DNA from: a virus
DNA: 64,000 nt
Reading direction: 5' to 3' (one strand)
Virus record (IMG/VR): IMGVR_UViG_3300040801_000905
Coordinates: 1 to 64,000 of that record
In this document: piece after piece, positions 13,527 through 63,577 of the stretch
Layout of the letters: every line of letters begins with the position of its first letter
Numbering within the stretch: position 1 is the stretch's first letter
Notes under the pieces: generated by a model
Told to the model about the DNA's origin: nothing
What the model saw: the letters and a program-made list of their open reading frames with translations, nothing else
Databases searched by the model: none
Translations under genes and position numbers: made by a program

Positions 13527-14087
13527 ATGAAGCCCGTGATTGACAACATCGAAACGCTTGATTTATCACGCCAATGTAGAACGTTGGGGTCAGGAAAGAA
13601 AGACCCATACGGAGAGGCAGAGGGGGAAGTAAAGACACCACATCAGTTGGATCAGTACAACCACGCAAGCACTGTCATTTTATGCAAGGACATTGCTGAC
13701 ATCCTTACCAAAACATATCCAGACTGGGCATGGGCTGTACAGCCACAAGAGTTTGGACAAGTCATCAATATATTCAACCTGAACCTGCACAGTGAGTATG
13801 CATATACCATACGCATGGTGGATATTATGTATGATCCAAGCAGGCGGCAAGCATACAAGGCTGGTGCAGAGATACTGAAACGCTTTGGGATGCCATATAA
13901 AATGGACCGTGAGCTGTTGGCCGCGGCTCCACGGGATGTGCGGAAAAACTGCATCCCAGACATATCAGATTTTGAGAGCAGGAAAGAAAAGCGTAATGCG
14001 GAACTGGCGCATATGCTGGCTACAGGGAAAGCACGGATTGTGGAAACAGAGGATGGGGGACGTTACCTAGAGGTAGATAACCGATGA
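13527..14087 (+). CDS. hypothetical protein (coupled to portal)
   Basis: 186 aa. ATGA overlap with the portal start. Confidence 0.65.
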   Translation: MKPVIDNIETLDLSRQCRTLGSGKKDPYGEAEGEVKTPHQLDQYNHASTVILCKDIADILTKTYPDWAWAVQPQEFGQVINIFNLNLHSEYAYTIRMVDIMYDPSRRQAYKAGAEILKRFGMPYKMDRELLAAAPRDVRKNCIPDISDFESRKEKRNAELAHMLATGKARIVETEDGGRYLEVDNR

Positions 14088-16510
14088 GCATTGGCCCAAG
14101 CAGTGAAGAAGCACTGGAAGACCCCATACGAAACCCAGTGCCGGAAGAAGGATACACGAACGAAGGTTCCGCTAAAGAAACAGCAGATGATGACCCCAGC
14201 AATGATTCTTTTTGGTTGAAGCGGGCTAGAGAAAGTCATCAAGCATCACAAACGTGGTTCGATGTGTCTATCAGGCGCAAAGCAGAAGACCACATGAGGC
14301 TGTTCAATAGTGAACATCCCCGCGGGTCGCGCTACAGTGATGAGTCATACCGTAAGCGCAGCAGGCTGTTCAGGCCGAAAACAAGAAGTGCAATACGCAA
14401 AACAGAGGCCGCAGGTGTGGCTGCATTCTTTGCAACACAAGATGCACTGACCTGTCAGCCACCTAATGCACGAGACCCCATACAGAAAGCGGGCGCTGAC
14501 TCCATGGCAGAGCTGTTGAACTACAGGCTACAGAATGATATTCCGTGGTTTGTGACATGCATAGGAGCCATCCAAGATGCTTCTAAGCAGGGTGTAGTGA
14601 TCAGCAGGCAGCAATGGAACTATCGTGAAGTTCAAGATGTGTATGATGAGGAAATAACGGATGCCATGACGGGCCAGTCTATGGGCAATCGCAGGACGTT
14701 TGAAAGGCGCGTAGTGGCAGATCATCCAGACATTGTTTTGCGTCCTATTGAGAATGTGCGGTTCTCACCAGCAGCTGATTGGCGCAACCCGATACAAACT
14801 AGCCCTTACCTTATTGACATGGAGCCATTCTATGTGGGGGACATTCTGGAGCGCGGGGAAGAAGGAGCGCAGGGGCAATACGATGTAGCGTTTCGTAAGC
14901 TGGATATCGCAACGATCAGATCAGCACTGAAACAGAGCTACGATCCTATCAGGCAAGCACGTGAAGGCCATCGTGAAGATCGTTACGAGGAAAATCACAG
15001 TGCTATTCAAGAGCACGATGCGGTCTGGGTGCATCACAACTATATGCGCGTAGACGGGCAGGATTGGTACTACGCCACTCTTGGCACAGAGATTATGCTG
15101 ACAGACGTGGTGCCTTTGGAGGAAACCACACCCCTGAAAGAGCGGCCATACACCATGGGCTTCATTGCGTTGGAAACACACAAGCCGTACCCCGCTGGGC
15201 TGGTGGAGCTGATGAGGCCAATTCAGGAAGAAATCAATGACATCACAAACCTACGAATCGACAACATCAGGCACGTTATTTCACCCCGCTATTTCGTTAA
15301 ACGGGGCAGCAGTGTCGATGTCCGATCCCTTCTCCGTAACATCGCTGGCGGTGTCACTGCCATGGAAGACCCGCAGAACGATGTACACATTAGACAGATT
15401 CAAGACACTACGGCTTCTTCTTTTCAAGAGCAGGACAGGCTCAGTGTGGAGGTTGACGAGCTGGCCGGAACAAGCAGCCAATCCTCAATTGCTGCAAACC
15501 ACAACATCAATGAGCGGGTAGGCAATACTCAGATGATGAAGGAAGACTCCAACCAGCTCACTGAAATGAACATCAGGACATTTGCTGAGACATGGGTAGA
15601 GCCTACGTTGCAGCAAGTTATGGAGCTGGAGCGGGCATTGGAGTCAGATGAAGTTGTTTTAGCGATTGTTGGGCAGCGCAGTAACATGGCACCAGAAATG
15701 GTATTTCGCATGATGGATATGCCAGTGCGCGTTACTGTCAACGTAGGATTTGGAGCAACCAACCCACAGCGCCGTTTGCAGAAGGTAGCTATGGCGTTTA
15801 GCACGTTGGCTCAAATCAACCCAAACCTGTTGGCACGAGCAGATGAGCGTGAGCTGGCGTCAGAAGTGTTGGGGGCTGTTGGGTTCAAGAGCGTAGAGCG
15901 TTTCTTCCCTCATCTTGCATCTGAAGGTAATGAAGACCCGCAGACCAAACAGCTGATGGAAGAGAATCAGCAGCTGAAAGCAATGCTTGAAGGTGAGCAA
16001 GGTAAGCATCAGGCGCAGCTTCAGGGTAAACAGATGGATGTACAGGGACGTGTGCAGATAGAGCAAATGCGTCTTGAGTATCAGCGTGAACGTGACCGCG
16101 GTGCAGATCAGCTTAAATACAACATTGAGCAGAATAAATGGAAAGGCATGTTGCTTGACCATGAAATCAAGCGAGAACAGAACGGGTTCCGCAGGCAGGA
16201 GCTGATAGAGCAGCGCAGAGCACTAAACCACACCATTGCGATGGATGAAAGACAGTACCAGATGGCCATGCGGGAGCAGCAGTACAACATGCAGCAGCCT
16301 GTAGAGAAAACACCTGACATTGGCAACACAGGACCAACCCCTGCCAAGGGAGCGCCTGAGCCGCAAGAGGTGAAGCCAAATGCTGGGCCAAACACAGACA
16401 ACCCCGGTGGTGGGAAAAGAATTGCCAGCACGCCTAAACTCAAAGGTGATGACATGGCAGGAGTAATATCACGAGGTGACTATGGTGTCATTCCCGGCAA
16501 GGAAGGATGA
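14084..16510 (+). CDS. portal protein
   Basis: 808 aa. Sits at the head of the structural block. The long Q/E/R-rich C-terminal coiled coil resembles the P22-type portal barrel. Size and synteny also fit: portal, scaffold, capsid. Confidence 0.75.
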   Translation: MSIGPSSEEALEDPIRNPVPEEGYTNEGSAKETADDDPSNDSFWLKRARESHQASQTWFDVSIRRKAEDHMRLFNSEHPRGSRYSDESYRKRSRLFRPKTRSAIRKTEAAGVAAFFATQDALTCQPPNARDPIQKAGADSMAELLNYRLQNDIPWFVTCIGAIQDASKQGVVISRQQWNYREVQDVYDEEITDAMTGQSMGNRRTFERRVVADHPDIVLRPIENVRFSPAADWRNPIQTSPYLIDMEPFYVGDILERGEEGAQGQYDVAFRKLDIATIRSALKQSYDPIRQAREGHREDRYEENHSAIQEHDAVWVHHNYMRVDGQDWYYATLGTEIMLTDVVPLEETTPLKERPYTMGFIALETHKPYPAGLVELMRPIQEEINDITNLRIDNIRHVISPRYFVKRGSSVDVRSLLRNIAGGVTAMEDPQNDVHIRQIQDTTASSFQEQDRLSVEVDELAGTSSQSSIAANHNINERVGNTQMMKEDSNQLTEMNIRTFAETWVEPTLQQVMELERALESDEVVLAIVGQRSNMAPEMVFRMMDMPVRVTVNVGFGATNPQRRLQKVAMAFSTLAQINPNLLARADERELASEVLGAVGFKSVERFFPHLASEGNEDPQTKQLMEENQQLKAMLEGEQGKHQAQLQGKQMDVQGRVQIEQMRLEYQRERDRGADQLKYNIEQNKWKGMLLDHEIKREQNGFRRQELIEQRRALNHTIAMDERQYQMAMREQQYNMQQPVEKTPDIGNTGPTPAKGAPEPQEVKPNAGPNTDNPGGGKRIASTPKLKGDDMAGVISRGDYGVIPGKEG

Positions 16511-48977: not shown

Positions 48978-51900
48978 ATGTCAAAAGTAAATTGGGACGA
49001 TTATTCGTCTATTGGTAAGCCGGAAGATGAAGTGGAAGTATCTTCCGCAACAGCAACCCCTGAAGCCACAGATTCTGTTGGTATCAACTGGGAAGATTAC
49101 GCGGATATTGGCAACTCAGTCGGCTTGCCAATTGAAGCCACACCTGAAGCAGAAGTAACTCAACCGGAACAGCCCCCTGTAGAAGATGAGTATGGTGTTG
49201 GAGACTTTGCATCTGACACCGGATCGGCATTTGGTTTAGGTGCAGGAGCCTTAGCAAAAGGGGCTGGAAAGTTATTTGACTGGGTTGGTATGGACGATGC
49301 TGGAGAGGCGTTAAAAAGCATCGGCCAAAGTGCAGTTGAGTATTATTACAAAGGCTTATCAGATGAAGCAAAAGCCGAGATGGACAAAGAGTTTGTCACG
49401 GTCAAAGAGGGGGGGAAATGGTACAACCCATTAGATTGGCAGCGCCCTGAAGACGCTGCTGGTATTTTTGCTGCGTATTTGATGGGTGTTGAGTCCTTAC
49501 CTGCCACCGTAGTTGGAATGGGCGTTGGCGGTAAAATTGGCCAAGGCTTGTATTCTGTTGCCAGCAGAACAGGCACCATGAAAGCACTTCAGGTTGTGGC
49601 TGACAAAGGTGCACGGGCAGCAGCATCTGGGGCCAGCGCAACAAACAAACTAGTTCGCGCAGGAAAGCGTGCTGAAAAAATACAAAAGCTGGCTGGTGGA
49701 GCTGCTGGCGCTACTGGCTATGGCATAGGTGAAGCCCTTCCTGCTGCTGGCATGGCTGGTGTTCAAGTTGAAGAACAAATCATGGCTATGGACCATGATG
49801 ATCTGTACAAAAACTCATCTCATTATCGTGAATATTTTGATGCCACATCGGGCTTAGATATGTCGATGGATGAGCGCATCAATGACGCTAAGCAAAACAT
49901 TGCAGACATAGCTTCATCTGAAGCTGGCTTAGAAGCGGGCATATGGACTGGCATTCTTGGTGCTCCGATGGGTGTGGCATCAGCTCCGCTATTCAATAAG
50001 GCAGTGCCGTGGGCATTTAAGGGAGGTAAGGTTCGTGGGGCGCTTACAGAAGGCGCAGGCGAAGCTATGCAGGAGTTCGCTCAGTCTGGAACAGAGCAAT
50101 ATGTTTCAAATGTTGCTATTAAAGAATATGCAGACGAAACACTGGATGTTACACGAGACGTAGTAAACGCAGCAGTTGGTGGCGCTGTATCTGGTTTTGG
50201 AATGGGCGCAGCATTTGGTGCAGCTGGCACTCCGTCTAAAGGTGAAAATCAAGACGGCGTTCAGCCTGATCCAAAGCTTTTGGCTGATGCTGAAAAAATG
50301 AACGTGTTTGCTCAGCGTGCCGTTGCAGGACTAGTGGAAACTCATGGACGTTCTTTGGAAGAAGCCATGGAACTGGTTCAGCCAGTTATTGACCAATGGG
50401 CACAATCACAAAAAATTCTTCCTGCCATAACTGATTTGCGTTTTATAGAAAAGTATGGGAAAGAGCGGCAGGTTGGAGTAGAAGAAGAGGTTGTTGATGC
50501 ACCAGAAGAACGCACAGAAGAGGGGGGGCAGGAAACAGAACGTGCCGCACAAGAACCCTCAAGAGAGGGTGGGTCCACCGAAGAACCTGCCACCGAAGAA
50601 CCTACCGCAGAAGAGCCTGCCGCAGAAGAACCTGTTGCAGAAGAGCCTGTTGCAGAAGAAAGAGCAGAAGCGCCAGATGTTGGTGTGGCTAGGAGTGTCG
50701 TTGAGACAGCAAAGGAAGAGTTTAAAAAGGCTGATGAGGCTTGGCAGGACAACCTGACTCCAGAAAATGAGCAAAAAATGCTGGAGGCTAGTGCTGCTAG
50801 GTATGAGGCTGAGGCAGAGCTGGATCGTGCAGAGACAATAAGGCGAACTACAAATCCTCCAGATGTTATTGACCTCAAAACAAATGAGTGGGTAACTCCG
50901 AAGGCGGGCACTGTTGATGAGGGTGAGGCTAAGTACCAAGAGCGTGTCAATAAGATGGGCGACAATCACCCGTCAGCCAGAGCTGCAAGAATACGTAAGT
51001 CACTAAAGGATCAGCCGCCTGTTTCACGTGAAACATCTGGCGAAACAACCACTGAAGACGCTGGCATAGACAAAGAAAATATAGAGTCACAACCGCCAGC
51101 AAATGATGCGCGTTATTCGCTCAGACAGAGGCTGAATGAATATGAAAAACGCACCGAAAGCAACGTTACAAAGTTTGTTAGGCGCGGTAAGAAAGAGCTA
51201 ACAAAAGAAGATGCTCAGGGTTGGGCTAACGAAGCTGTCCGGTTAGTTAATGACTGGTATAAAAACCCCATTCCAGAAGAGGCTTGGGAGCTAGACGAAA
51301 AAGGGATGCCAACAAAAATGGTATCTCTTCCAGAAGAAGCGGCTCCAGCTTATGCTGAATTGTTCATCACTAATGAAAAAGTGACAAAAGAACAAATACA
51401 ACAGTGGGCTAAAAACAGAACATTTAAAAAAGGAAGTACGCTTGAAATTGGACGGCAGTTAGCAAAGGCTGCTGCCAAAAATGATATGCAGGCTGTGGCA
51501 GATATTATTCAAAATCTGCCTATACAAGAAAAAAAATCACAAATAAAAGATTTCAATGCTGAATTTTTGCGGGCTTTAGCTATTAAGGCAGACGCCCCAA
51601 GCGAGGTAATCAGAAGCAAGCCTGAAACAATTGAATACCTATTGCGATATAAAGCTGGCTCACAGCTTCCGTTATTTTCGCTTAAAGAGGGTGAGGCTGG
51701 GCCATGGGTAACGGCGTCTAATGGAGAAGGTGATTTATACATTACGCGCCATGGTGCCCGCGCAGGAACGCCGCATAAAACACGACAGTCTTCCAACGAT
51801 TTAGTCTTACGTATTGATGAAGCGCAGCTCAACAAAGATTACACATATTATCTTCTTCAATATTTGCAAAAGAAAATTGCAAGTAGGGCGCGTGGCACGG

Positions 51901-54900
51901 CGCAGCAAGCCATTAGAGCTGGGGATGTTGATAGCGTTTTGACGGAATACTTTGCGAGTCAAAGCCCGCGGTATTCAATTAAAGAGCTAGCGCGAAGAGT
52001 AAAAGCATCTGAGCGCATGGTGGAGTACAACAAGGAAAGAGCAGAAAAAAATGGCCACCTTGTTAAAACACTTATGCGAACAGACTGGAGCGCTGTTGAA
52101 GCAGCAGTAGATGCTGCTACAGCAGGGGCTGTAAGTGCAAATGAAGTACAGGATGCCATCATTGAGTGGATGATGTATGGCACCAACAGCAAATATTTTA
52201 AGCGATGGTTTGGTAAATCAAAAACCACGGATTACTGGGGTGAACCTATACGGTTTTTTCACGGGACTGGATTTGACATTACGGAGTTCTCGCCCAGCCG
52301 TGGGTTTGTTTCATTAACTACTGATCCAGACTTTGCCTCAAAGTTTGCTGATGAGTTTAGGTTGGAGGCCAATCGTCCAACCGTATACCCATTGTATGTT
52401 GCTGCGGAAAAAATATTTGATTACCGCAACAGAAAAATGAGAAGAAGCTTGGTGCGTTACTTGAAGGGGATCAACGCCAAAGATTACGGGTCGTTGATTC
52501 AAGAAGTAAAAGCAGGCAAGTGGACCGCTTTGGAGTCTGCTCCCGTTCAAAAGTTTTTAACTGAGCGAAGCTACGATGCTTTTTGGATGATGGAAGGCGG
52601 GAGCATGAACATTGGTGTTTTTGATCCGCGTAACATCAAGTCCGCAGTAGGCAATGTTGGTACGTTCAGCAGGCAAACAACACATCTGTCTTATGCGCTT
52701 AAAGCGCCGGGGACAGACGATGTTTTTTATTCCACAATTGAGCGATGGGTTGCAGAAAAAATGCCCCCCAGAATGCCTAAAGCAGATTTTGCAGCGGCAT
52801 TTACTACGCCAAAGGCACTGGAAAAAAAGGGTGTAAAGAAAGAAGAAGTGGCCGATATGGGGGTGATGGAATGGGTCAAGAGTTTAGAAGGAGATATTGT
52901 CACAAAAGAACAGGCTCTTGAGTTTGCACGTAAAGCACGTGTTGAATTACGTGAAATAGAAATAAGACCAGATGCACTAGCTATTGATAGATCAACGTTT
53001 GATGAAGCGTCCGCTGTTCAGCAAATTGAAAATATTTACCAGTTTGCACGTGATTTACTTATAGACACACAAGCGGACCCACTGGTTATCGACTCAGTTA
53101 TTGATCGGTTGAAGGAAGAAGGTGTTCGTGCATTAGACGATGTGTTGCCAGCATCACAGGTAGCCAAAATCAGCAAAAAACTGGATCAGGCACGACTGGA
53201 TTTGTGGCAAGCAGAATATTTTGCTGCTCAGCAGAACAGCAACAAAGACCGAATCAAGGTTGGTGATACAACGTATGAAGACTGGACCCTGATTAAAGGG
53301 GCGCGGCCAACATATCGTGAGTTTTTGATGATGATTCCATCATCAGAACAGCGGCCAGAATATAAAACGCGCCACTGGAAAGACACTAATGTTTTGATTC
53401 ATATGCGCCTGCATGGTCAATATGATTCAGATACAGGTAAAACGACATTAATTATCGAAGAAATCCAGTCGGACCTTCATCAGCATGGATATCGTTATGG
53501 GTATACACCGTCTGATTTATCTCAACAGGATTACGATGAAATAAATGAGGCAACTGGCAAGGTGCCAAAAGCACCATTGCAAGAAGCATGGAAGATGGTG
53601 GGCTTAAAGCGCATGATCCGATACGCTGTTGAAAACGGATATGACTCAGTTTCATGGACAACGGGGCAGCACCACCAAGAGCGATACACCTTAAAAGGGA
53701 GCGGCGTAGAGCGCGTTGAACTGGAAACGCGTGAAGCTGGAGACCATACACAGTATCGGGTGGCTTTGTTTGGGGCAACTGATCAGCTGTATGCACCACA
53801 ACCGTGGGTGCGTAAGCATCGTTTGGGTGATTTTATCACCGAAGAGCTGATTGATAAGCTGTTCGCAAAAATAGAAAGCGGTGGGGCAGCAGAGCTATCT
53901 GGCGAAGAGTTGTGGTGGGATGCCAAGGGCATGAAGTGGTTTTATGATAGCGCCCTAAAAAAACAAGCCGCAAAGTACATTAAGAAATGGGGTAGCAAAG
54001 TAGAGCTGCGTCCTGTCGCCATAGTTAATGCAGCAAACGATCAGGTCACAGAAAACTTGTGGACCTTCGACATTACAGAACAAATGCGTGAGTCTGTAAT
54101 GCAAGGCCAGCCAATGTATAGCTTGGCACCAAATGTGGCAGCTGAAATTAGTCGCCGCATAGAGATGGCGCAGCTACGAGCATATATAGATAAACACATT
54201 CATGCAGACACTAAGCCACGCGCAGCTCTTGCGCGGTTAAACGAGGGTGTCGTTCAAGGGTTGTATAGCGAAGAAATATTGCGTCATTCGGGCGCTGTCA
54301 TGCATGTAAAAGACAGGGTAAAAATGCTGATGGAGGTCAGCGAACGGATGCTCGGAACCCCTATCACTACACGCACATCGTTATCTAAAAGGGTAGTAGA
54401 GCAGGAAATTAATCGCATCAAGCGGGAGTGGGAAAATCCTCCGCAAGTATACGTGTGGGATGATTGGACTGGCCTTCCGCATCACATCAAAATGCATGTC
54501 GCAAGCAGGGGCTATCAAGACCGCGTTGAGGGAGTAGTAGACCCACAGGACGGGTCTGTACATATTGTCGCTGAAAACATCGGAACAATGTCCAGATTGC
54601 ATGAAGTGTTTGTTGAAGAAACACTTGGTCATCATGGCTTGCGTTCGTTTTTTGGTGAAAGCCTTATACCTTTTCTTGATGAAGTTATTCCAGTGATGCG
54701 TGACTCAGAAGGCTGGGTTCGTTTGCATACAGAGTATGAGCATCTGCAACCCGCTAATAAAGAGCAGCGCGTTAAACAATTAATGTCAGCGTATGGTTTT
54801 ACCAAGCAAGAGGCAGAGACAGAGTTTGCGGTTGAAGAGCGCACCAAGGAATGGGTAACTGCTGAAGAACTGCTGGCCAAGATGGATGTTGAGCAGGGAA

Positions 54901-57900
54901 TATGGGAAAAGTTTGTAGGCTGGATGCGCGAATTTTTTAGGAGGTTTGGTCTTCTTAACGGTTACACCGAAAATGATTTCCGTACACTTATGGCAAAGGT
55001 CCACAACCACGTCATGAACGGGACAACCCCGCACGCGTGGGGAAAGAGACACAAATCAGGGGTTATGTACGCGGGTCAGGTGGCATACAGTTTATACGGG
55101 GGCAAAGATGGAATTTTGTTGTCGAAGCTAGAAGAGGCCATAAAGAAACTTGACCCTAAATCAAAGCCAAAAAATTACCTGATCAGAATAAAAGGCAGCA
55201 AGGAAGAAAATTGGATGACGTATGGTGCGCCATCTAATTTGCAAGCTGTACAAAGCCTAGGGTTTAGTGAGTCAGAGCTTCAAATGACTGGGGTTACTGA
55301 TTGGCTAAATGAGCAACATCGTGTTGCGCCAAACAAGTCAATTACCAGAGACCAAATACTGGAGGTTTTTAATAAGACCAAGCCAAAACTTAATGTTGTG
55401 TCTCGTACTGGACATTTCCTGTTTCCAACAATTCCTCTGGCAGAAGTTATAGAAGTTGTTCCAAAGGCCGCGAGAAGAGAATTTGACATAGCAAGCGCAC
55501 AAGAAAATCTTGGATATTTTTCGGATCGGCTTACTGAAGTGTTGAATGATCCTGAACAAAAAATACTGAAGGAGCTGTTTAATGCGGCTCCAGATGAGCA
55601 AGTCACCCCTTCTTTTTTATGGTACAGAGGCGCTGTAAATATGCCGTTTGGAGCTGGTGGTGTTCCTAGTTTAGATGAGTTTAAACAGCGTGGAATATCA
55701 ACAGAAGAAATATCTCAAGCGGTTGGATTGCGTAATTTAAACGCGCCCTTAACGAGAGAAAACTCAACGGCAGAAATGCGCGGGATTGTTGCTGATAGAT
55801 TAGTGCAGAGAGCACAAAACAAGGGAGATGAATATATAAGTTATATGTTTAAAGCTATCGTCACATCTCCATATTTTCCTATGAGGGGAGACGTAAAAAT
55901 AAGTGTGGCAATGGATGATGATGGTCTTCCTGTTGCTGCTTACAGAACCTCATCAAGTATGCAAGAAGCTTTTTTAAAGCCGTTTAATGAAGCAATTGAC
56001 AAATATCGGCGTATGAAAAAAGCGGATCAAGAACAATATGAGCAGGCTACTCAAAGAGCTTTAGAAACACAAAGTAATGAACCACCCCTGACTATGCGAG
56101 GCGTGTATCAGCAAGCACCGATTCCTTCAATGGGTGAGTATTTTACTCAGGTGTTGCAAAACATGATTCAGGAAGAGGTAAATGATCGGTTAAGCAACAA
56201 TGAATGGGAAACGATGACGCCAGAAGCTCTATTCCCTAATTTCCCAGCACTAGGGGAAAAAATAATGATTGGGGTTCGTGGTGCAGTATCAGCTACGAAT
56301 AAACCAGTTTTCATTGAACGCTCCGAAGGTTCGGCAAAATCTGCTTCAGACTATGCGCAATACACATTACAAGGCGGGCAGGCTTTAGACGTTATATCTT
56401 TGCAAATGTACGGACGTAACCAAAACACAGGTTATGCACACTACGACAGAGAAGATGTTGTTCATGCCCGTGTAAAAACCCGTGTTGGGCCTAATGGTGA
56501 AAAAATACTTGGCATTGAAGAAGTCCAATCTGACTGGGCAAGCAATTACCGAAAAGCTCACGTAGAAAGAGCAGAATATTACAAGTGGGCAGATAAACAC
56601 GCAGCAACAGTGGTTCGTGCTGCTGTTAAATTGTATCAATCACACGGAATTTACTCTCATGACATGACACCTGAAACAGTCCAGTCATGGAGGAACTGGG
56701 TTGAGAGTGAAAGCCCAGCAGCCGTACAGATACGCGCTCGTATGGCAGCGGACAGAATATCATTATCTTCTCTTCTTGATACAGGGATAGGCTCATTTGC
56801 TGCTATTGAAGCGTTAAGTCAAGTTGATAAAACACTGGCCAGCGAATTAAAAACGGCTGCGCTGGAACTCAAAGGATTAAAGAAAAGTTTTGAATATATG
56901 CCATGGGTTGGCAACTACATGGACTTGATGTTGTCTGCGCTTGTGGGGTATGCGAGGCAAACAGGCTTTGATGTTGTAGCGTGGCCTGAAGGTAGTCACG
57001 TGGCGCGAATATATGGAAGCTATATGGGCGAAGAGGTAAACGGTCTTCGTATCAATCCACAACAAATGGTTGTATACGGTTCAATGACTGGCCCTAATGA
57101 ACCGTCCAACAATACCGCATGGACAGAGATTGCTGGAACGCTTCGCACAGGACAACATCGTGTTTACACGGCAGATTATTTGGGTGAAGTTATTGATGAA
57201 GGTGGGGTAAATGCAGAGGTAGCTAAGGCAGCTGTAGAGGCTCTTCAGGCATGGATAGATAACCCAGATTATCGAAACAACCCTGTAACCAATCAAGAAG
57301 ACCAAACAAAAACATGGAAGTATAAGGTTGAGACTGACATAGGCAATAGATATTTACGGGTTTCTGAGAATGGAGACCTGTTAATTATGTTGCCAGAAGA
57401 GCGTCTATGGAATGCCCGACTGCATAAGCTGTTGTACAACAGGCTTTTGCCTCAAGCAGCACGGGCTATTGCCAAAGATACCAAGGCAATGAAAAAGCGT
57501 GGTGAGGTATCGACTGGCCATGTTTATGTAGAAGACGCTTATAACGTACAGTGGCGCGGCAGAAGGCGGGATGAGAATGTTGATGACTGGGCAAACCCAA
57601 ATGACCACCAAGATGTAGAAATGGAAGGACGCCCGACCCAGTATCCAGAACAACTAGAAGTTCTTATGTATGGCAGAGACGGTGGTTCATACAGAAGAAG
57701 CCTGCGCGACTGGATTGCAAACACTCCAACACGTCAAATACAAAGGTATTCCCAATCTGATGAAGCTGTTCTTATAAACGAGCAGATAGTAAGGGATATG
57801 GGGCAACATACCGTTGAGCTTAAATTAGATGGAATCATTCACACTCATGGAGCTGATTACGATGACATTAATCCTATGGTTGGTATGTTTGACTTCAGTG

Positions 57901-60900
57901 TTGTTGGGCGGGATGGAAACCATTCCGTTTTAATTCCTGTTGGCGACTATAACAACAGTCCAGTTGGGGCAAGATACACTGACTACACACAATACAATGA
58001 TAGTGCCCGTGCGCCCATGCTTTACCGTATGGGTTATCAAATAATGAAATACGTTTGGGGAATTGAAAATCCAAATCCCTTAATCATTTCGCCCAACACA
58101 TGGCGAAGACTAATGGAGCAATTTCGTATTGGTTTGGCAGACTTTGAAGATCATGGCTTTGAAGTGAATGAAAATTGGGTTCAGTTCGGTGAAGAAGTTA
58201 TGAAAAACAACTGGGAGGAATCCAAAGACAATTTTGAAGTAGAGGCAGAAGAAAGATTTAGTCAGATGGAGCCTGAAGAATATGACCCTGTATATTGGGG
58301 TTTTGACTACGACATATATACATCACTTGATGATGGCTTAGAAGATGACGCGCCAGATTTTGAACGTAGATTCAGCCATGAATTTGAATTTGGACTAAGC
58401 CAAGAAACAATTGATTTATTAAAAGAGCACGGCACTTTAAAAGATAAAGGCGCGGCTGCGGTGTTGCTTTCTATTATGTCTGAATCACCGCTGGCCATGG
58501 AACACGCGGACTATCAAGCTGTTGCTGATTTGTGGAATGAACTTGATACACCGCCAAGAGAAATCGCTGAAAAAATACCGCCCGCATACATAGAAAGATA
58601 TGGGGCAGTTGAGCTGGAGGAGAGACAACAAGAGCAAGAGCTTATTCCGTATGGCATCGACAACCCTCAGCGTTCAGAACAGGTTTGGCACGCCATATTT
58701 ATTAATGACAGGGTAAAGGAGCGTGATATTTTCGTACCGTTTTCATTGAGAAATGACGGTAATGAAAAGGCGCGGTCTATTGTTAACCAAAAAATAGCAA
58801 AATCACACAGCCAAATGACAGTGCTGGATCGTGTTACGCATTGGACCCACGTTGTTCATGACAAAATAAAAACAGGTGATCTGATGTGGGGAATGAAGCA
58901 GGGGCTGCTTGATTCTGCCGCAAGTGTTGAACGATGGGAGCGTGAAATATTTGGTGAAGTTCAGGATGCTGCGGTATCTCCATACAAGATGATGCATATG
59001 ACAAAAAATCTTGCATCAGTTATGGCCGCAATATCCAAGGCAGGCATACCGGAAATGCGTGATGGTGTGTTTCAGCCCGTTGATGGAAGAAAGGGTTTTA
59101 TTGAAATCTTTCGCCCTGTTTATGAGCACCCAGATGGTGACTTACAAGAACTGTGGGAAGGCTATGCAGCTGCACGCCGTTCTGATGAATTGCTAGAGCA
59201 GACCAATCCTGACGGAACTGATAGAGAAAAACTATTCAGTCGTGAAGAGGTTGATGAACTGTTGCAGTTGGGTGAAAAATATCCTGTTTTCAAAACGGTG
59301 TTTGATGAGTGGACTGAGTTCAATAATCAGCTGCTAGACCTTGCTGTTAGTGAAGGTGTATTAAGTGCAGTAGAGCGAGACGCTTGGGCTAAGAACGCAT
59401 ACGTCCCCTTCTATCGTGCCATGGAAGAAATAGAAGGCGTTGATCAACGCACTGGTATGGGCCGCACCAAGGCTGGTGTGGCAGGACAGCACCCGCTTAT
59501 TAAACGGTTGCGTGGTAGTAAGCAAAAGCTTGGAAACATCACAGAAAATCTTTGGTTCAACACTGCTAGCTTGATTGACAAGGTTTACAAGAACCATGCA
59601 ATGAATCGTGTTGTTGATATGTTGGATGGTGTGGCGATGAAAGAAATCGACATGCCATGGGAGGCCATCAGAGTAAGTAACAGTCAAATTGCACAAGCAC
59701 TAAAAAGCGCAGGCATTCTTACTGGAGATGCTGAAGCACAAGTACGCGCAATGTCAGCAGAACAGAAGATGACGTGGAATACCATTTTCCGCAGGGTGCG
59801 GCCAACTGCTGATAATGTTGTTGGTGTAATGCGTGAAGGAAAGATGCGTTATTACGAAGTTCAAGATGAACACTTGCTTGTAACCCTAACTGGCATGGGG
59901 GCTGAAAGCATGGTCGGCTTGATGAAGGCTATGGGAATGTCCAAGTCTTTGTTGACGCGCATGATTACCATTGATCCCGGCTTTATGCTTGCCAACTGGT
60001 TACGTGACACGCTGTCTGCGTGGGTTACATCTGACGCCAACTTTATTCCAGTTAAAGATTCTATTGCTGCTATGGGCAGTGTCTTTAAAGAAGACGGTAG
60101 CTTCGTAAAGATGATGATGTCTGGTGCAGGTGGTGGTGGTTTTTACGATCTGACGGGAGGTAACGTAACAAAGGTTCTTGATGAAGAGTTGAGCAAGGGA
60201 GCGCATCGTTGGCTAGGAAAGGCGTGGAAGGGGTATATGAAAATTGGTGCTGCGTCAGAAAACTCCAATCGTCTGGCCATTGCAAATCAAATCCTAAAGA
60301 AAGGTGGCAGTGCTGCGGAAGCCATGTATCAGGCACAAGACATCATGAACTTCACCATGTCTGGTGACTATGCCGCAATACGATTCCTGATTCGTACTGT
60401 CCCATTTTTGAACGCACGGATGCAGGGCTTGTACCGCCTTTACCGCGGTGCTCGTGACAACCCTGTTGGTTTTACCATTAAAGGCGCGGCCCTAATGTCA
60501 GCGTCATTGGCATTGCTGGCTAAGAATTGGGACGATGATGATTATGAGGAAACCGATGAATGGCTGAAAGATCGTGACTGGAGCTTTTATGTAAATGGAA
60601 TGCACTACACCATACCAAAACCGTTTGAGGTTGGGTTGTTGTTTGGCACTCTTCCAGAACGGCTGGTGCGTGCGCTGCTTGGGCGAGATGATTTGGATGT
60701 AAGCAAGGATGCGCTAATGCGCGGCATCGGAGAAACGCTTGCTTTCAATCCTATCCCGCAGCTTATTAAACCAATGTATGAGTTGGGCGCAAACAAGAAC
60801 CTGTTCACAGGAAAAAAGATTGTTAATCTCTCTATGAGCGGTTTGGAATATCCCTATCAAGCCACTCCATGGACCTCCCCTGTAGCCAAACATATTGGTC

Positions 60901-61496
60901 AGGCAGTGCCTGAAGCTTTAGGGCCAGCGCAAAGTCCACTGCGAATCCAACACACCATACGTGCATACACTGGAACGGTTGGTCTGTACACGCTTAATTC
61001 AGTTGACTGGCTGGTGCGTAAAATGGATGGGGACTTGCCCCCACAACCTACGCGCAAGTGGTGGGAAAGACCCGTGATTAATAGAATCGTAAAGGGTCCA
61101 ACAGAAACTACGCGATATAACAAATATGAAGATAAGCTGTATGATTTGATTGATCAATCAAATAAAGCGCAGCGGACGTTTAACATGCTGGCTAAACAAC
61201 AGCGTATTGAAGAAGCCAAAAAAATTGCGGCCAAGCGTAAGCATTTGATTAACCCAGACATCAACGCAGAAACTGGTCAGCCGCGGAACCGTGATGCGGT
61301 TACTCCGCGTACAGAGTTGATGAAGGTGCAAAAAGCTTTACGTGATATCAATGAGGCTCAACGTGCCATCATGAATCACAAGACTATGAGCAGTGATAAG
61401 AAGCGGGCTATGTTGGACAAGCTTACGGCACGCAAGAACAAAATCTTGTCCAATTCAAGTAACCTTATCGAAAAAATCAATCAAATGAAGCCGTAA
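48978..61496 (+). CDS. giant (4172 aa) mosaic virion/ejection protein with an ART-like domain ('polyvalent protein' type)
   Basis: A single uninterrupted ORF. The position is equivalent to T7 gp16. The N-terminus has a Gly-zipper hydrophobic region. Other features: 'WFGKSKTTDYWGEPIRFFHGT...SLT...MMEGG..NIGVFDPRNIKSAVGNVGTF', two copies of an 'EE(I/V)QSD...G(Y/F)D.V.W..G' module, and an approximately 900-aa C-terminal domain ('AYVPFYR', 'ENSNRLA', 'VPFLNARMQG'). Confidence 0.85.
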   Translation: MSKVNWDDYSSIGKPEDEVEVSSATATPEATDSVGINWEDYADIGNSVGLPIEATPEAEVTQPEQPPVEDEYGVGDFASDTGSAFGLGAGALAKGAGKLFDWVGMDDAGEALKSIGQSAVEYYYKGLSDEAKAEMDKEFVTVKEGGKWYNPLDWQRPEDAAGIFAAYLMGVESLPATVVGMGVGGKIGQGLYSVASRTGTMKALQVVADKGARAAASGASATNKLVRAGKRAEKIQKLAGGAAGATGYGIGEALPAAGMAGVQVEEQIMAMDHDDLYKNSSHYREYFDATSGLDMSMDERINDAKQNIADIASSEAGLEAGIWTGILGAPMGVASAPLFNKAVPWAFKGGKVRGALTEGAGEAMQEFAQSGTEQYVSNVAIKEYADETLDVTRDVVNAAVGGAVSGFGMGAAFGAAGTPSKGENQDGVQPDPKLLADAEKMNVFAQRAVAGLVETHGRSLEEAMELVQPVIDQWAQSQKILPAITDLRFIEKYGKERQVGVEEEVVDAPEERTEEGGQETERAAQEPSREGGSTEEPATEEPTAEEPAAEEPVAEEPVAEERAEAPDVGVARSVVETAKEEFKKADEAWQDNLTPENEQKMLEASAARYEAEAELDRAETIRRTTNPPDVIDLKTNEWVTPKAGTVDEGEAKYQERVNKMGDNHPSARAARIRKSLKDQPPVSRETSGETTTEDAGIDKENIESQPPANDARYSLRQRLNEYEKRTESNVTKFVRRGKKELTKEDAQGWANEAVRLVNDWYKNPIPEEAWELDEKGMPTKMVSLPEEAAPAYAELFITNEKVTKEQIQQWAKNRTFKKGSTLEIGRQLAKAAAKNDMQAVADIIQNLPIQEKKSQIKDFNAEFLRALAIKADAPSEVIRSKPETIEYLLRYKAGSQLPLFSLKEGEAGPWVTASNGEGDLYITRHGARAGTPHKTRQSSNDLVLRIDEAQLNKDYTYYLLQYLQKKIASRARGTAQQAIRAGDVDSVLTEYFASQSPRYSIKELARRVKASERMVEYNKERAEKNGHLVKTLMRTDWSAVEAAVDAATAGAVSANEVQDAIIEWMMYGTNSKYFKRWFGKSKTTDYWGEPIRFFHGTGFDITEFSPSRGFVSLTTDPDFASKFADEFRLEANRPTVYPLYVAAEKIFDYRNRKMRRSLVRYLKGINAKDYGSLIQEVKAGKWTALESAPVQKFLTERSYDAFWMMEGGSMNIGVFDPRNIKSAVGNVGTFSRQTTHLSYALKAPGTDDVFYSTIERWVAEKMPPRMPKADFAAAFTTPKALEKKGVKKEEVADMGVMEWVKSLEGDIVTKEQALEFARKARVELREIEIRPDALAIDRSTFDEASAVQQIENIYQFARDLLIDTQADPLVIDSVIDRLKEEGVRALDDVLPASQVAKISKKLDQARLDLWQAEYFAAQQNSNKDRIKVGDTTYEDWTLIKGARPTYREFLMMIPSSEQRPEYKTRHWKDTNVLIHMRLHGQYDSDTGKTTLIIEEIQSDLHQHGYRYGYTPSDLSQQDYDEINEATGKVPKAPLQEAWKMVGLKRMIRYAVENGYDSVSWTTGQHHQERYTLKGSGVERVELETREAGDHTQYRVALFGATDQLYAPQPWVRKHRLGDFITEELIDKLFAKIESGGAAELSGEELWWDAKGMKWFYDSALKKQAAKYIKKWGSKVELRPVAIVNAANDQVTENLWTFDITEQMRESVMQGQPMYSLAPNVAAEISRRIEMAQLRAYIDKHIHADTKPRAALARLNEGVVQGLYSEEILRHSGAVMHVKDRVKMLMEVSERMLGTPITTRTSLSKRVVEQEINRIKREWENPPQVYVWDDWTGLPHHIKMHVASRGYQDRVEGVVDPQDGSVHIVAENIGTMSRLHEVFVEETLGHHGLRSFFGESLIPFLDEVIPVMRDSEGWVRLHTEYEHLQPANKEQRVKQLMSAYGFTKQEAETEFAVEERTKEWVTAEELLAKMDVEQGIWEKFVGWMREFFRRFGLLNGYTENDFRTLMAKVHNHVMNGTTPHAWGKRHKSGVMYAGQVAYSLYGGKDGILLSKLEEAIKKLDPKSKPKNYLIRIKGSKEENWMTYGAPSNLQAVQSLGFSESELQMTGVTDWLNEQHRVAPNKSITRDQILEVFNKTKPKLNVVSRTGHFLFPTIPLAEVIEVVPKAARREFDIASAQENLGYFSDRLTEVLNDPEQKILKELFNAAPDEQVTPSFLWYRGAVNMPFGAGGVPSLDEFKQRGISTEEISQAVGLRNLNAPLTRENSTAEMRGIVADRLVQRAQNKGDEYISYMFKAIVTSPYFPMRGDVKISVAMDDDGLPVAAYRTSSSMQEAFLKPFNEAIDKYRRMKKADQEQYEQATQRALETQSNEPPLTMRGVYQQAPIPSMGEYFTQVLQNMIQEEVNDRLSNNEWETMTPEALFPNFPALGEKIMIGVRGAVSATNKPVFIERSEGSAKSASDYAQYTLQGGQALDVISLQMYGRNQNTGYAHYDREDVVHARVKTRVGPNGEKILGIEEVQSDWASNYRKAHVERAEYYKWADKHAATVVRAAVKLYQSHGIYSHDMTPETVQSWRNWVESESPAAVQIRARMAADRISLSSLLDTGIGSFAAIEALSQVDKTLASELKTAALELKGLKKSFEYMPWVGNYMDLMLSALVGYARQTGFDVVAWPEGSHVARIYGSYMGEEVNGLRINPQQMVVYGSMTGPNEPSNNTAWTEIAGTLRTGQHRVYTADYLGEVIDEGGVNAEVAKAAVEALQAWIDNPDYRNNPVTNQEDQTKTWKYKVETDIGNRYLRVSENGDLLIMLPEERLWNARLHKLLYNRLLPQAARAIAKDTKAMKKRGEVSTGHVYVEDAYNVQWRGRRRDENVDDWANPNDHQDVEMEGRPTQYPEQLEVLMYGRDGGSYRRSLRDWIANTPTRQIQRYSQSDEAVLINEQIVRDMGQHTVELKLDGIIHTHGADYDDINPMVGMFDFSVVGRDGNHSVLIPVGDYNNSPVGARYTDYTQYNDSARAPMLYRMGYQIMKYVWGIENPNPLIISPNTWRRLMEQFRIGLADFEDHGFEVNENWVQFGEEVMKNNWEESKDNFEVEAEERFSQMEPEEYDPVYWGFDYDIYTSLDDGLEDDAPDFERRFSHEFEFGLSQETIDLLKEHGTLKDKGAAAVLLSIMSESPLAMEHADYQAVADLWNELDTPPREIAEKIPPAYIERYGAVELEERQQEQELIPYGIDNPQRSEQVWHAIFINDRVKERDIFVPFSLRNDGNEKARSIVNQKIAKSHSQMTVLDRVTHWTHVVHDKIKTGDLMWGMKQGLLDSAASVERWEREIFGEVQDAAVSPYKMMHMTKNLASVMAAISKAGIPEMRDGVFQPVDGRKGFIEIFRPVYEHPDGDLQELWEGYAAARRSDELLEQTNPDGTDREKLFSREEVDELLQLGEKYPVFKTVFDEWTEFNNQLLDLAVSEGVLSAVERDAWAKNAYVPFYRAMEEIEGVDQRTGMGRTKAGVAGQHPLIKRLRGSKQKLGNITENLWFNTASLIDKVYKNHAMNRVVDMLDGVAMKEIDMPWEAIRVSNSQIAQALKSAGILTGDAEAQVRAMSAEQKMTWNTIFRRVRPTADNVVGVMREGKMRYYEVQDEHLLVTLTGMGAESMVGLMKAMGMSKSLLTRMITIDPGFMLANWLRDTLSAWVTSDANFIPVKDSIAAMGSVFKEDGSFVKMMMSGAGGGGFYDLTGGNVTKVLDEELSKGAHRWLGKAWKGYMKIGAASENSNRLAIANQILKKGGSAAEAMYQAQDIMNFTMSGDYAAIRFLIRTVPFLNARMQGLYRLYRGARDNPVGFTIKGAALMSASLALLAKNWDDDDYEETDEWLKDRDWSFYVNGMHYTIPKPFEVGLLFGTLPERLVRALLGRDDLDVSKDALMRGIGETLAFNPIPQLIKPMYELGANKNLFTGKKIVNLSMSGLEYPYQATPWTSPVAKHIGQAVPEALGPAQSPLRIQHTIRAYTGTVGLYTLNSVDWLVRKMDGDLPPQPTRKWWERPVINRIVKGPTETTRYNKYEDKLYDLIDQSNKAQRTFNMLAKQQRIEEAKKIAAKRKHLINPDINAETGQPRNRDAVTPRTELMKVQKALRDINEAQRAIMNHKTMSSDKKRAMLDKLTARKNKILSNSSNLIEKINQMKP
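50580..50660 (+). repeat. 5 x 15-nt in-frame tandem repeat (EEP[AT/TA/AA/VA/VA])
   Basis: gaagaacctgccacc / gaagaacctaccgca / gaagagcctgccgca / gaagaacctgttgca / gaagagcctgttgca. Confidence 0.9.
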
Positions 61497-61570: not shown

Positions 61571-62434
61571 TTATAGTTCATCGCGTTCAATGTCAGTGCG
61601 TTTGGCCCAATTTGGCCTTGTAATTGGCACAACGTGGTTTGTGTATCCAGCCCACTCATCGTTCATCATGCAGAAATTTATTGCTGCCATGGAAGAGGTG
61701 TAGCTGTCACGTCCTGCTTCAATGTCTTCATCGGTTAGCTCATAAAATGCCATAAGCCGCGGGTCTGCCTCAAACGTATTACGCTTGTCAGGCTTTTCCA
61801 TTACGCCAAAAACAAACCTCTGCACTGGCTTGCCACAAGCGCGAACGCCGTCTATGTAGAAAGCAGCTTGTATGTGGTATGAGAAGTTAGCAATAGCTTT
61901 GGAAAACCCATACGGGCTTGCGTCTATTGCTGTCTTCAAATCAAAAATAGTTCCTGATTCTTCGTCATACCAGTCAAGCTTGCATTTGCAGCGCATTGCA
62001 TAAACCGGATCATCCCACATAAATACAGGCTGTGGTACGCCGCGTTTCATGAGGTCAGCCATGACTGGGTTGTTGCGTACTGCCAAGGCTGTGGTTAAAG
62101 CTTCTTTGTGGGCGTCATTAGATACCAGTGCTACATGATTAGCTTTGGCGTGCTTAACCAAAGAAGCCCATTCTTCGCGTCCAGCTTTGGTGCGCTTATT
62201 GATGTCGGGAGCAATGATGAACTGCTTGTCGAACTCTTCTGGTTCAAAGATCAAGCAGTCCACCATGCTTCCCATTAGCAGAGCCGCTGTCGGCTCGGCA
62301 GGTGGCGAATCCAAATATGAGCGGAGGTGCCATGGTGTTTTGGCGTCAATAATTTTCAGCCATGTAGAGCTTACCGCGGTTCTATCCGCATGATATTCGG
62401 GGTTGGATACCCCTAATTGCATTCCAGTTTTCAT
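61571..62434 (-). CDS. RecE-like PD-(D/E)XK exonuclease (DUF3799-type)
   Basis: 'GTIFDLKTA' (D-x-K) and 'YHIQAAFYIDG' motifs. Paired with recT upstream. Confidence 0.7.
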   Translation of the reverse strand: MKTGMQLGVSNPEYHADRTAVSSTWLKIIDAKTPWHLRSYLDSPPAEPTAALLMGSMVDCLIFEPEEFDKQFIIAPDINKRTKAGREEWASLVKHAKANHVALVSNDAHKEALTTALAVRNNPVMADLMKRGVPQPVFMWDDPVYAMRCKCKLDWYDEESGTIFDLKTAIDASPYGFSKAIANFSYHIQAAFYIDGVRACGKPVQRFVFGVMEKPDKRNTFEADPRLMAFYELTDEDIEAGRDSYTSSMAAINFCMMNDEWAGYTNHVVPITRPNWAKRTDIERDEL

Positions 62435-62660
62435 GGTCTACTACCTCATTGATGATGTTGTCTTCAGAATCAGTGTCTGAATCGGTTGTGATCGCTCTTC
62501 CGTCAAGATGCCACTGGCGATAGATGTGCCCTTGCAGGATAAAACCTGAAGCAACAGTACCCCTCACCTCGTGGATGAAAGCTATACAGCCCCCCTCTGT
62601 GCAGTATTTTCTTCCTGCTTGGAGTCGGACTGTCCCAAGTGAGACGATCTTTCTTTCCAT
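62382..62660 (-). CDS. hypothetical overlapping ORF (doubtful)
   Basis: 92 aa. Overlaps the recT 3' end by 79 nt and the exonuclease 5' end by 53 nt. No good alternative start. Confidence 0.25.
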   Translation of the reverse strand: MERKIVSLGTVRLQAGRKYCTEGGCIAFIHEVRGTVASGFILQGHIYRQWHLDGRAITTDSDTDSEDNIINEVVDHENWNAIRGIQPRISCG

Positions 62661-63577
62661 TGTGCCAAGCCTTTTTCTAGCGTTGACTTAACGTCCGTGT
62701 ACATTGATTGCGGAACAACCCTGATCCCGCTAGGAAAGCCTAAACTGTTGGCAATCCCGTTCATTGTTGCGGCTTGTGCTGCACGATTTACACCAGCCGC
62801 GTCCATAATATCCCTGAACTCTTTTAGCTGTTCTACAGTCAGCGTTTCCTTGTTCAGTTCGTTGACCGGAGTATTGTTTTCAAATTCCATTGGGTCTGTC
62901 CGGTCAACAGCTTCCATCATGGCAACCAAATTTGGATTGGTCATTTTGGGGAAATGCTTCCACGCTCTACGCAGAACGCTTTTTTTGTACATTTCCTCTC
63001 TAAAAGCACCCTTCCAAACAAACGGCACTTGGCCATTGTTCTTACGTGCGGCAGCATCACGACACCCTGAAAGGGCATTTCTGTCCATCACCTCAATGAT
63101 GGTTCGCCCACTTGTCAACCATGCAATACAGTAAGCATGAGTGACATCGCCGCGGTTTCCAGTAGCTTCTTCGTGCTGAATGTTACGTCCATCCTTGTCA
63201 GTGTAAACTTTGAATGTGTCCTTTTCACGCACAACACCACATTGGATTCCTTCAATCATTCCGGTGCGGTATGCAACTTGTTCCAGACCCATGTAGCTGG
63301 GGCTGGCAGTGCATTCCTTTCCATATGGGATAAGATAAGCTAAGCGCATTGCTGGGCTTAGCGTCAATCCCATTATCCCAAGATCAATCAACGCTCTTGA
63401 GATTGTCTGCGGATCACACTTTCTTATCTTGTCGTTGGTTCTATAAAGCTCCAACGCATAAGCAAGTTCAGTATTCCAATCCATCTCATCGTTGAGACGG
63501 ACGCGATTAAATTCACGGCAGCTGGCCCCTTTGCGGACCATCTGTTTGCGAACGTCTACCAAAGAATTATTAGTCAT
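62582..63577 (-). CDS. recT: RecT-family single-strand annealing protein
   Basis: 'RLAYLIPYGKECTASPSYMGLEQVAYRTGMIEGIQCGVVREKDTF' is the RecT core pattern. 331 aa. Confidence 0.85.
   Translation of the reverse strand: MTNNSLVDVRKQMVRKGASCREFNRVRLNDEMDWNTELAYALELYRTNDKIRKCDPQTISRALIDLGIMGLTLSPAMRLAYLIPYGKECTASPSYMGLEQVAYRTGMIEGIQCGVVREKDTFKVYTDKDGRNIQHEEATGNRGDVTHAYCIAWLTSGRTIIEVMDRNALSGCRDAAARKNNGQVPFVWKGAFREEMYKKSVLRRAWKHFPKMTNPNLVAMMEAVDRTDPMEFENNTPVNELNKETLTVEQLKEFRDIMDAAGVNRAAQAATMNGIANSLGFPSGIRVVPQSMYTDVKSTLEKGLAQWKERSSHLGQSDSKQEENTAQRGAV

Follow-up and report, generated by a model that had tools for sequence, protein, structure and literature searches.

The IMG/VR virus record IMGVR_UViG_3300040801_000905 encodes a giant phage protein of 4172 amino acids that carries one domain of the ART-PolyVal family (Pfam PF18760), a family of predicted ADP-ribosyltransferases (ARTs). 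The window analysed here covers positions 1 to 64,000 of that record; it has a G+C content of 47% and is a segment of a phage genome. It is close to certain that residues 1072–1240 of the giant protein belong to the ART-PolyVal family and adopt the ART fold, and this domain, the only ART-PolyVal copy in the window, is an ordinary member of a known family with a small clade-specific variation. The function proposed here, which as a whole is considered moderately probable, is that the giant protein is packed in the virion and ejected into the host, where the domain would carry out ADP-ribosylation of a host macromolecule at the onset of infection, dependent on nicotinamide adenine dinucleotide (NAD+).

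Family membership was determined with profile searches. The PF18760 profile matches the whole giant protein at residues 1087–1230 over profile positions 3–140 of 140 (E = 4.4e-13, 50.6 bits), and the excised domain is matched at E = 8.1e-15 (56.3 bits), both above the curated gathering cut-off of 31.2 bits. An earlier note on this DNA, made from the sequence alone, had called the segment a member of the family of ARTs in polyvalent proteins, and this significant, full-profile match agrees with that call. The peptide that the earlier note described is found at residues 1073–1230 of the giant open reading frame (ORF), with HGT at 52260-52268 (residues 1095–1097), SLT at 52311-52319 (residues 1112–1114) and a downstream Glu, given as about 52593, that is E1206 at 52593-52595. 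These motif coordinates were exact; the start given for the segment, 52195, is a slip of one base, as the codon frame starts at 52194 and the frame from 52195 gives stops.

An exhaustive phmmer search with residues 1048–1253 as the query against 1.84 billion cluster representatives (50% cluster level) recovered 3834 relatives at E <= 1e-3, of which 1016 are at E <= 1e-10. The best 150 of the 3834 relatives are mostly proteins of roughly 1500–5800 residues, many of them with several copies of the domain, and 272 near-full-length copies taken from these 150 proteins were used for all column counts given below. A sub-alignment of 36 diverse ART-PolyVal sequences, referred to as A1, was prepared as well, and all 36 members match PF18760. 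Weak additional matches in A1 are to DUF3990 (six members, best E = 5.6e-6), PARP (two) and RES (one), families that we take to be part of the ADP-ribosyl clan. A word-indexed protein search with the domain gave no match at E <= 1e-3, and IMG/VR scans queried with either the single domain or the 36-sequence alignment were unproductive; a scan with a four-sequence clade alignment found four loci.

The signature that the earlier note gave for the family, WFG.S...d..G.P..vyHGT with a C-terminal.IKSa..N.G.F, corresponds to columns that are strongly conserved in the 272 copies. On the N-terminal side the residue of the window copy is shared by 257 copies at W1077, 255 at F1078, 262 at S1081, 261 at G1088 and 263 at P1090, and within the HGT motif G1096 and T1097 are shared by 236 and 232. 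On the C-terminal side, where the window copy reads IKSAVGNVGTF (residues 1220–1230 at 52635-52667), G1228 and F1230 are found in 260 and 213 copies. Further near-invariant columns are those of D1085, F1104, A1120, P1138, Y1140, P1146, F1215 and P1217, and the residues that are strictly invariant in A1 are H1095, F1104, D1200, K1221 and S1222. Both flanking family motifs, WFG.S...D..G.P and F.P.QIKSA.GN.G.F, are present in the window copy, with N1219 replacing the Gln that precedes IKS; this column holds Gln in 254 copies and Asn in four. The set formed by H1095, D1200, K1221, S1222 and N1226 (H-D-K-S-N) is intact, as it is in 223 of the 272 copies, and about one fifth of the copies have lost one of its members.

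The fold was examined with an AlphaFold2 model of residues 1066–1246 that was built with alignment A1. The model has a mean predicted local distance difference test (pLDDT) score of 90.1 and a predicted template modelling (pTM) score of 0.86. A Foldseek search of the PDB with this model determined that the best match is the anti-CRISPR protein AcrIF11Pae1 (6KYF; E = 2e-4, template modelling (TM) scores of 0.47/0.58), followed by 9k3a_B, a chain of the cyanophage A4 pre-ejectosome (E = 4e-4). Further matches at E values of 0.05–0.75 are to MbcT (0.05), NatT (0.09), KptA/Tpt1 (0.13), PARP1/2/4/10/13, tankyrases and a PE-like toxin, and the TM-scores of the PDB matches are modest at 0.3–0.58. Among predicted viral structures 74 matches were found at E <= 1e-3, and among the matches listed many are annotated as ART-PolyVal or polyvalent-protein domains. 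Sequence searches against the PDB, with the single sequence by phmmer and with the profile, gave chance-level matches only and did not recover 6KYF. It is close to certain that the domain has the ART fold with its NAD+-binding split beta-sheet, and it is assigned to the H-Y-E/D (diphtheria toxin/PARP-like) division. Two of the checks named in the earlier note, for a significant family profile match and for an ART fold in a structural model, came out in favour of the ART assignment.

The second of the Foldseek matches has an observation of its own attached to it. The paper on the cyanophage A4 pre-ejectosome structure never mentions ADP-ribosylation. The gp27 protein of the Anabaena phage A-4L (NC_024358, locus L003; 20116-25269, minus strand) features an ART-like stretch, LYHGT ... 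GSGTYFSKSSQAA, at residues 1424–1458, with a likeness that is limited to a short HGT ... G.YFS motif and an hhalign probability of 7%, and gp28 of this phage has no profile similarity to ART-PolyVal. These comparisons did not tie 9k3a_B to a specific A-4L protein. If the match is real, an ART-like domain would already have been imaged, unnoticed, inside a podovirus capsid.

The family has been placed in the Tox-ART-HYD2 clade, with an active site that consists of a His in strand 1, a Tyr in strand 2 and an Asp in strand 5 (PMC5512222). In the window copy these positions correspond to H1095, to S1112 in the second core strand of the model and, as predicted, to D1200, which is located directly before model strand 136-141. 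An hhalign comparison of the family profile with the PARP1 catalytic fragment, confirmed to be identical to PDB chains, pairs S1112 with Y896 and F1123 with Y907, at a probability of 3% that is not significant. The strand-2 Tyr is replaced by Ser in the window copy; Tyr is found at this position in 31% of the copies, so it is typical of the family rather than defining. As judged from the alignment, S1112 leaves membership at the level of the hidden Markov model (HMM) intact but marks the clade as atypical, and the working set of predicted active-site residues is H1095, S1112 (the atypical member), F1123 and D1200.

The earlier note had read the site differently, as an H/S/E triad formed by the HGT His, the SLT Ser and E1206. 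Its His is the family His, and its Ser lies at the correct strand-2 position but is rare there, as 214 of the 272 copies have Phe, Tyr or Trp. Its Glu does not hold up as the catalytic acid: Glu occupies the column of E1206 in just 43% of the copies, whereas D1200 is near-invariant, is invariant in A1 and matches the H-Y-D arrangement reported for the family (PMC5512222). E1206 was rejected as a catalytic residue on these grounds, and D1200, not E1206, is the residue whose mutation should abolish activity.

The two unusual residues of the window copy occur together in a small clade. In the 272-copy alignment the pair S1112 and N1219 is found only in the window protein and in its three closest representatives, P0001, P0014 and P0015, and it is found again in the protein of IMG/VR locus L005. 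The giant protein is colinear with P0001, a protein of 4260 residues, and with P0015, and its domain is more conserved than the proteins as a whole: the identity to P0001 is 60% for the domain and 48% for the whole protein, and the identity to P0015 is 48% and 39%. The L005 relative has 4491 residues and is 43% identical across the ART domain. Because the pair is kept in five diverged proteins, the H-D-K-S-N set is intact and the domain is conserved above the protein average, the pattern appears to fit a maintained, slightly altered pocket better than decay.

The domain is embedded in a polyvalent protein whose position in the genome bears on its delivery. The gene is the last one of the plus-strand structural block, and the single ORF combines ART-PolyVal, LPD38 and an N-terminal region like that of N4-type virion RNA polymerases, in keeping with the description of phage polyvalent proteins by Iyer et al. 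(2017) as large polypeptides with at least two unrelated domains whose genes lie with the virion or late genes. A Pfam-A search of the giant protein gives two domains, PF18760 ART-PolyVal and PF18857 LPD38. The match to the phrog_2206 'virion RNA polymerase' profile is confined to profile positions 258–625 of 3406, and the polymerase core is unmatched. The C-terminal module that includes LPD38 comprises the last ~870 residues and is the most conserved part of the giant protein, with 60–80% identity to orthologues. The same module closes 45 of the best 150 ART-PolyVal proteins, with a median distance of 6 residues to the C-terminus, and it is found at the end of giant proteins of isolated phages whose hosts include Vibrio, Escherichia, Aeromonas, Thalassomonas, Pelagibacter and Bacillus; LPD38 is confined to phage polyvalent proteins. 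The GenBank names of module-bearing proteins include 'N-6 adenine-specific DNA methylase', 'DarB-like antirestriction', 'putative portal', 'virion structural protein' and 'hypothetical'. The module is mostly alpha-helical, with one hydrophobic segment at residues 3830–3848 in a hydropathy scan, and an AlphaFold2 model of residues 3300–4105 has a pLDDT of 66.

The domains ahead of the module vary from phage to phage. The E. coli podophage PTXU04 has a 2197-residue protein, gp25, in the same position after the structural genes, which features LPD38 and no ART domain, whereas gp47 of the Stx phage phi24B, a protein of 2811 residues, has LPD5, LPD1 and a MuF-C peptidase along with LPD38 (bioRxiv 10.64898/2026.04.10.717836). 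The Pseudomonas phage vB_PaeM_USP_25 encodes a protein of 4899 residues with an N6-methylase, a helicase, LPD23, a putative metallopeptidase and ART-PolyVal. This distribution suggests a constant chassis, the LPD38 module, in front of which phages exchange their effector domains. The giant proteins of N4 (the virion RNA polymerase), phi24B and PTXU04 resemble the window protein in that all are very large, come from a late or final gene of the structural block and have a conserved terminal module, which in gp47 and gp25 contains LPD38; N4 adds the N-terminal likeness, although the RNA polymerase core of that enzyme is undetected in the window protein. The gp47 protein was reported to be abundant in purified phi24B virions by mass spectrometry and invisible in the cryo-electron microscopy map, and its proposed role is that of an ejection protein packed in the capsid (bioRxiv 10.64898/2026.04.10.717836). 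By analogy this is the nearest experimental support for delivery, from a relative that is only distant. Since the ART domain is part of a giant protein whose gene closes the structural module, its delivery with the virion is plausible, and Iyer et al. predicted such a role for ARTs in polyvalent proteins in 2017 (PMC5512222).

Taken with the conserved residues, this arrangement points to the following sequence of events, in which we infer catalytic competence, packaging and ejection with the virion, and a protein target. The giant protein would be synthesised late and loaded into the capsid of a podovirus whose portal is SU10-like, where the conserved LPD38 module may anchor or organise it, and it would be ejected into the cell along with the DNA. 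In the cell the ART domain would bind NAD+, with H1095 and the S1112 ... F1123 element forming a putative nicotinamide pocket, and D1200, which opens the strand after the helical insert, would stabilise an oxocarbenium-like transition state. ADP-ribose would then be moved to a host macromolecule before any phage gene expression, and the likeliest acceptor may be a protein of the transcription machinery or of the immune system.

Comparison with known systems places the domain among its relatives. It shares with the ART-PolyVal family (PMC5512222) the signatures F.RWFG.S..D..G.P..(Y/F)HGT and F.P.(Q/N)IKSA.GN.G.F, the strand-1 His, the Asp that opens the strand after the helical insert, and the setting in a giant phage protein in a late or structural gene context. 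It differs from most of the family in having Ser in strand 2 instead of Tyr, Phe or Trp and Asn instead of the near-invariant Gln before IKS, in being single-copy where many relatives have 2–9 copies, and in having no detected zincin peptidase partner. AcrIF11Pae1 is an anti-CRISPR protein that was shown experimentally to ADP-ribosylate Csy1 (Cas8f) at N250, with key residues H-F-H-D in place of the canonical H-Y-Y-E (PMC12421852). As the nearest solved fold it resembles the window domain in its minimal ART core with a variable helical region (PMC12421852) and in a non-canonical site that ends in Asp, and AcrIF11 is likewise encoded by phages, and by plasmids, and used against the host. It is unlike the window domain in that phmmer and profile searches detect no sequence similarity between them; so far as these failed searches tell, AcrIF11 is also without the WFG.S and QIKS motifs. 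Furthermore, AcrIF11 stands alone as a protein of about 130–140 residues whose expression from an acr locus follows entry, whereas the window domain belongs to a giant protein that would be packed in the capsid. A link between AcrIF11 and the ARTs of polyvalent proteins was made neither in the AcrIF11 paper (PMC12421852) nor in a 2022 survey of viral NAD+ systems. The earlier note had drawn an analogy to T4 Alt, which holds for the proposed delivery logic: Alt is a head-packed ART that is injected with the DNA and modifies host proteins such as RNA polymerase before phage expression. The analogy does not extend to kinship, as T4 Alt belongs with ModA and ModB to a separate R-S-E clade (PMC5512222), and the window domain, of the H-Y-D type, has no sequence match to the R-S-E type of Alt and VIP2; Alt is moreover a protein of its own instead of one domain within a polyvalent giant.

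Several points weigh against the proposed function. Activity is a prediction, drawn from sequence, for the ART-PolyVal family as a whole, and no biochemical study of any member was found in the literature. The placement of D1200 as the canonical catalytic acid draws on secondary-structure order and conservation, and the residue-level alignment with PARP1 is, at its low probability, not significant alone and merely consistent with this mapping. The window copy deviates from the family at S1112 (this residue in 12 of the 272 copies), N1219 (4), S1198 (6; usually Gly), A1201 (17; usually Gly) and F1094 (30; usually Tyr), and NAD+ binding could be weaker with one nicotinamide-stacking aromatic residue gone. 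Packaging in the virion is suggested only by gene position and by analogy to distant homologues. No processing metallopeptidase was found in the giant protein by Pfam, and it also has no HExxH motif; a zincin-like metallopeptidase is common, not universal, in polyvalent proteins. A Foldseek search of the PDB with the model of residues 3300–4105 gave nothing below E = 0.8, so that this part of the C-terminal module has no solved relative.

The alternatives to an injected, protein-modifying enzyme differ in the substrate, the activity and the timing that they propose. The domain might be an active NAD+-using enzyme with a non-protein substrate, which would ADP-ribosylate DNA or RNA as DarT does, or degrade NAD+ as toxins of the RES/MbcT type do. 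MbcT, NatT and KptA/Tpt1 are among its nearest folds, one family member has a weak Pfam RES match, and the family-invariant K-S ... N motif has no assigned role, nor does the evidence identify a target. RES and KptA enzymes depend on conserved Arg residues, and strand 1 of the window domain has the family His, not Arg; the best solved match is a protein-modifying ART, and an NADase that drained NAD+ at entry would presumably hurt the replication of the phage itself. Iyer et al. grouped the family with the protein-modifying ARTs (PMC5512222), and a non-protein substrate is considered rather unlikely. An active enzyme might also target host or phage proteins at a late stage of infection, with the giant protein left unpackaged. 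In favour of this explanation, neither a known head-targeting domain such as MuF nor a processing peptidase was detected in the giant protein, and no known ejection protein matched its C-terminal module in structure. It is nevertheless judged quite improbable, as the giant gene closes the structural module, giants of the LPD38 type occupy the same position in podophages, one of them having been found in virions by mass spectrometry, and the N-terminal region is like that of the packaged N4-type polymerase.

Two further explanations were weighed. The domain might be a relic that has lost catalysis and persists for a structural or binding role within a capsid-packed giant protein, and the rare substitutions S1112, N1219, S1198 and A1201 would fit such a loss. 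Relatives (P0005, P0008, P0057 and others) have up to nine full-length tandem ART-PolyVal copies per protein, and up to 19 matched stretches were seen in one relative; degenerate copies exist, namely those that lack one of H-D-K-S-N, and in proteins with at least four copies the full set is kept by 90 of 116 copies. The window copy keeps all five residues, however, its S1112/N1219 pair is shared by five diverged proteins, and its conservation exceeds the protein average, while AcrIF11 is active despite a non-canonical H-F-H-D site (PMC12421852); a dead relic is for these reasons regarded as unlikely. Least credible is an Alt-like R-S-E enzyme that uses the H/S/E residues HGT, SLT and E1206. 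There is an S-L-T at the strand-2 position, and a Glu is located downstream. R-S-E enzymes have an Arg in strand 1, an S-T-S motif in strand 2 and a (Q/E)xE acid motif. The window domain has His and not Arg in strand 1, its Ser is a rare clade-specific replacement of an aromatic residue, the acid column favours D1200 over E1206, and no Pfam match to the ART, ADPrib_exo_Tox or Alt-type families was found; the family has also been placed in the H-Y-D clade, separate from Alt/VIP2 (PMC5512222). With H1095, S-L-T and S-Y-D1200 the window domain departs from the R-S-E pattern, and an Alt-type reading is contradicted by the alignment and was rejected. The proposal of an injected enzyme that ADP-ribosylates a host macromolecule is preferred over these alternatives.

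Table 1. Coordinates of the ART-PolyVal domain, its predicted functional residues and other features of the 64,000-nucleotide window.
Feature	Position	Strand	Evidence or remark
ART-PolyVal domain, residues 1072–1240	52191..52697	+	Pfam PF18760 match to residues 1087–1230 (52236-52667); relatives; AlphaFold2 model; Foldseek
H1095, strand-1 His of HGT, predicted NAD+-binding residue	52260..52262	+	His in 262/272, invariant in A1; model strand 28-32
S1112, strand-2 position (PARP1 Y896 position), usually aromatic	52311..52313	+	Column F 93, Y 84, W 37, S 12 of 272
F1123, second aromatic, helix after strand 2 (PARP1 Y907 position)	52344..52346	+	Column Y 141, F 90; model helix 52-61
Variable alpha-helical insert between the ART core halves, residues 1152–1196	52431..52565	+	Model helices 87-131; gap-rich, poorly conserved columns
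D1200 (SYDA; family motif GYDG), predicted catalytic acid	52575..52577	+	Asp in 247/272, invariant in A1
E1206, Glu proposed by the earlier note	52593..52595	+	Glu in 118/272 (43%); far end of the strand opened by D1200
K1221-S1222 ... N1226, C-terminal family motif F.P.QIKSA.GN.G.F (here N1219 for Q)	52638..52655	+	K 269, S 267, N 259 of 272
Giant ORF, 4172 residues, phage polyvalent protein	48978..61496	+	One uninterrupted reading frame
N-terminal region (residues 230–653), like the N-terminal part of N4-like virion RNA polymerases	49665..50936	+	phrog_2206 'virion RNA polymerase', E = 6.7e-12
Conserved C-terminal module, residues 3300–4172, including LPD38 at residues 3853–4033 (60534-61076)	58875..61493	+	Pfam LPD38, E = 3.8e-34
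SU10-like portal gene, marks the structural module closed by the giant gene	14084..16510	+	Pfam SU10_portal, E = 3.3e-39
Exonuclease VIII-like gene	61571-62434 / 62582-63577, pair with RecT gene	-	phrog_412, E = 3.7e-71
RecT gene	61571-62434 / 62582-63577, pair with exonuclease VIII-like gene	-	Pfam, E = 2.6e-25

Other ORFs of the window encode a small terminase, a capsid protein and an SU10-like adaptor, and there is a replication module with a helicase, a Toprim/zinc-ribbon primase, a single-stranded DNA-binding protein (SSB) and RusA. The exonuclease VIII-like and RecT genes on the minus strand converge on the end of the giant gene. In locus L005 a minus-strand ORF lies directly after the giant gene and is similar in size to the ORF that follows the giant gene of the window, and in Pseudomonas phage USP_25 a minus-strand SSB gene and an exonuclease gene are located further downstream, beyond lysis and recombinase genes. 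A search for partner genes among 45 other ORFs of the window turned up no macrodomain, no ADP-ribosylhydrolase and no gene of NAD+ synthesis. At the DNA level the region matched none of 50,697 phage records, and looking up the exact sequence of the giant protein returned no existing entry.

Other parts of the giant protein feature recognisable stretches as well. The motifs ...LIIEEIQSD... and ...ILGIEEVQSD... are located at 53457-53474 and 56517-56534 (residues 1494–1499 and 2514–2519), about 1000 residues apart in comparable sequence surroundings; the pair hints at a duplicated domain inside the giant protein and was not detected by a self-BLAST of the protein at E <= 1. A Glu/His-rich motif, VF.EE.LGH.GLR..F, at 54606-54656 (residues 1877–1893) is conserved in both long orthologues and differs from the canonical HExxH motif of zincins. 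An acidic, proline-rich tandem stretch, TEEPATEEPTAEEPAAEEPVAEEPVAEE, at 50577-50660 (residues 534–561) is probably a flexible linker. The region at residues about 676–900 is the least conserved relative to P0001, with 14–26% identity. The hydropathy scan also revealed two moderately hydrophobic segments near the N-terminus, at 49464-49520 (residues 163–181) and at 50160-50225 (residues 395–416), the latter rich in Gly and Ala, through which an ejection protein could interact with membranes.

In terms of annotation the domain is unremarkable and can be recognised correctly, and its presence in a protein of this type would come as no surprise to a specialist. Few predicted enzymatic domains are commoner than ART-PolyVal in the giant proteins that are thought to be injected by phages and conjugative elements, and the copy in the window is clean and single, has all the invariant residues and a confident model, which makes it a tractable construct for a first biochemical test. 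In fold the family is closer to the anti-CRISPR ART AcrIF11 than to T4 Alt. This likeness leads to a tentative suggestion, held with low confidence, that the domain is an injected anti-defence enzyme whose AcrIF11-like ADP-ribosylation would disable a host immune complex within seconds of DNA entry, before phage transcription; the S1112/N1219 pocket would then reflect a changed target or cofactor specificity. If this is true, the thousands of ART-PolyVal copies, often in tandem, would amount to a large pool of catalytic anti-defence activities directed at different targets.

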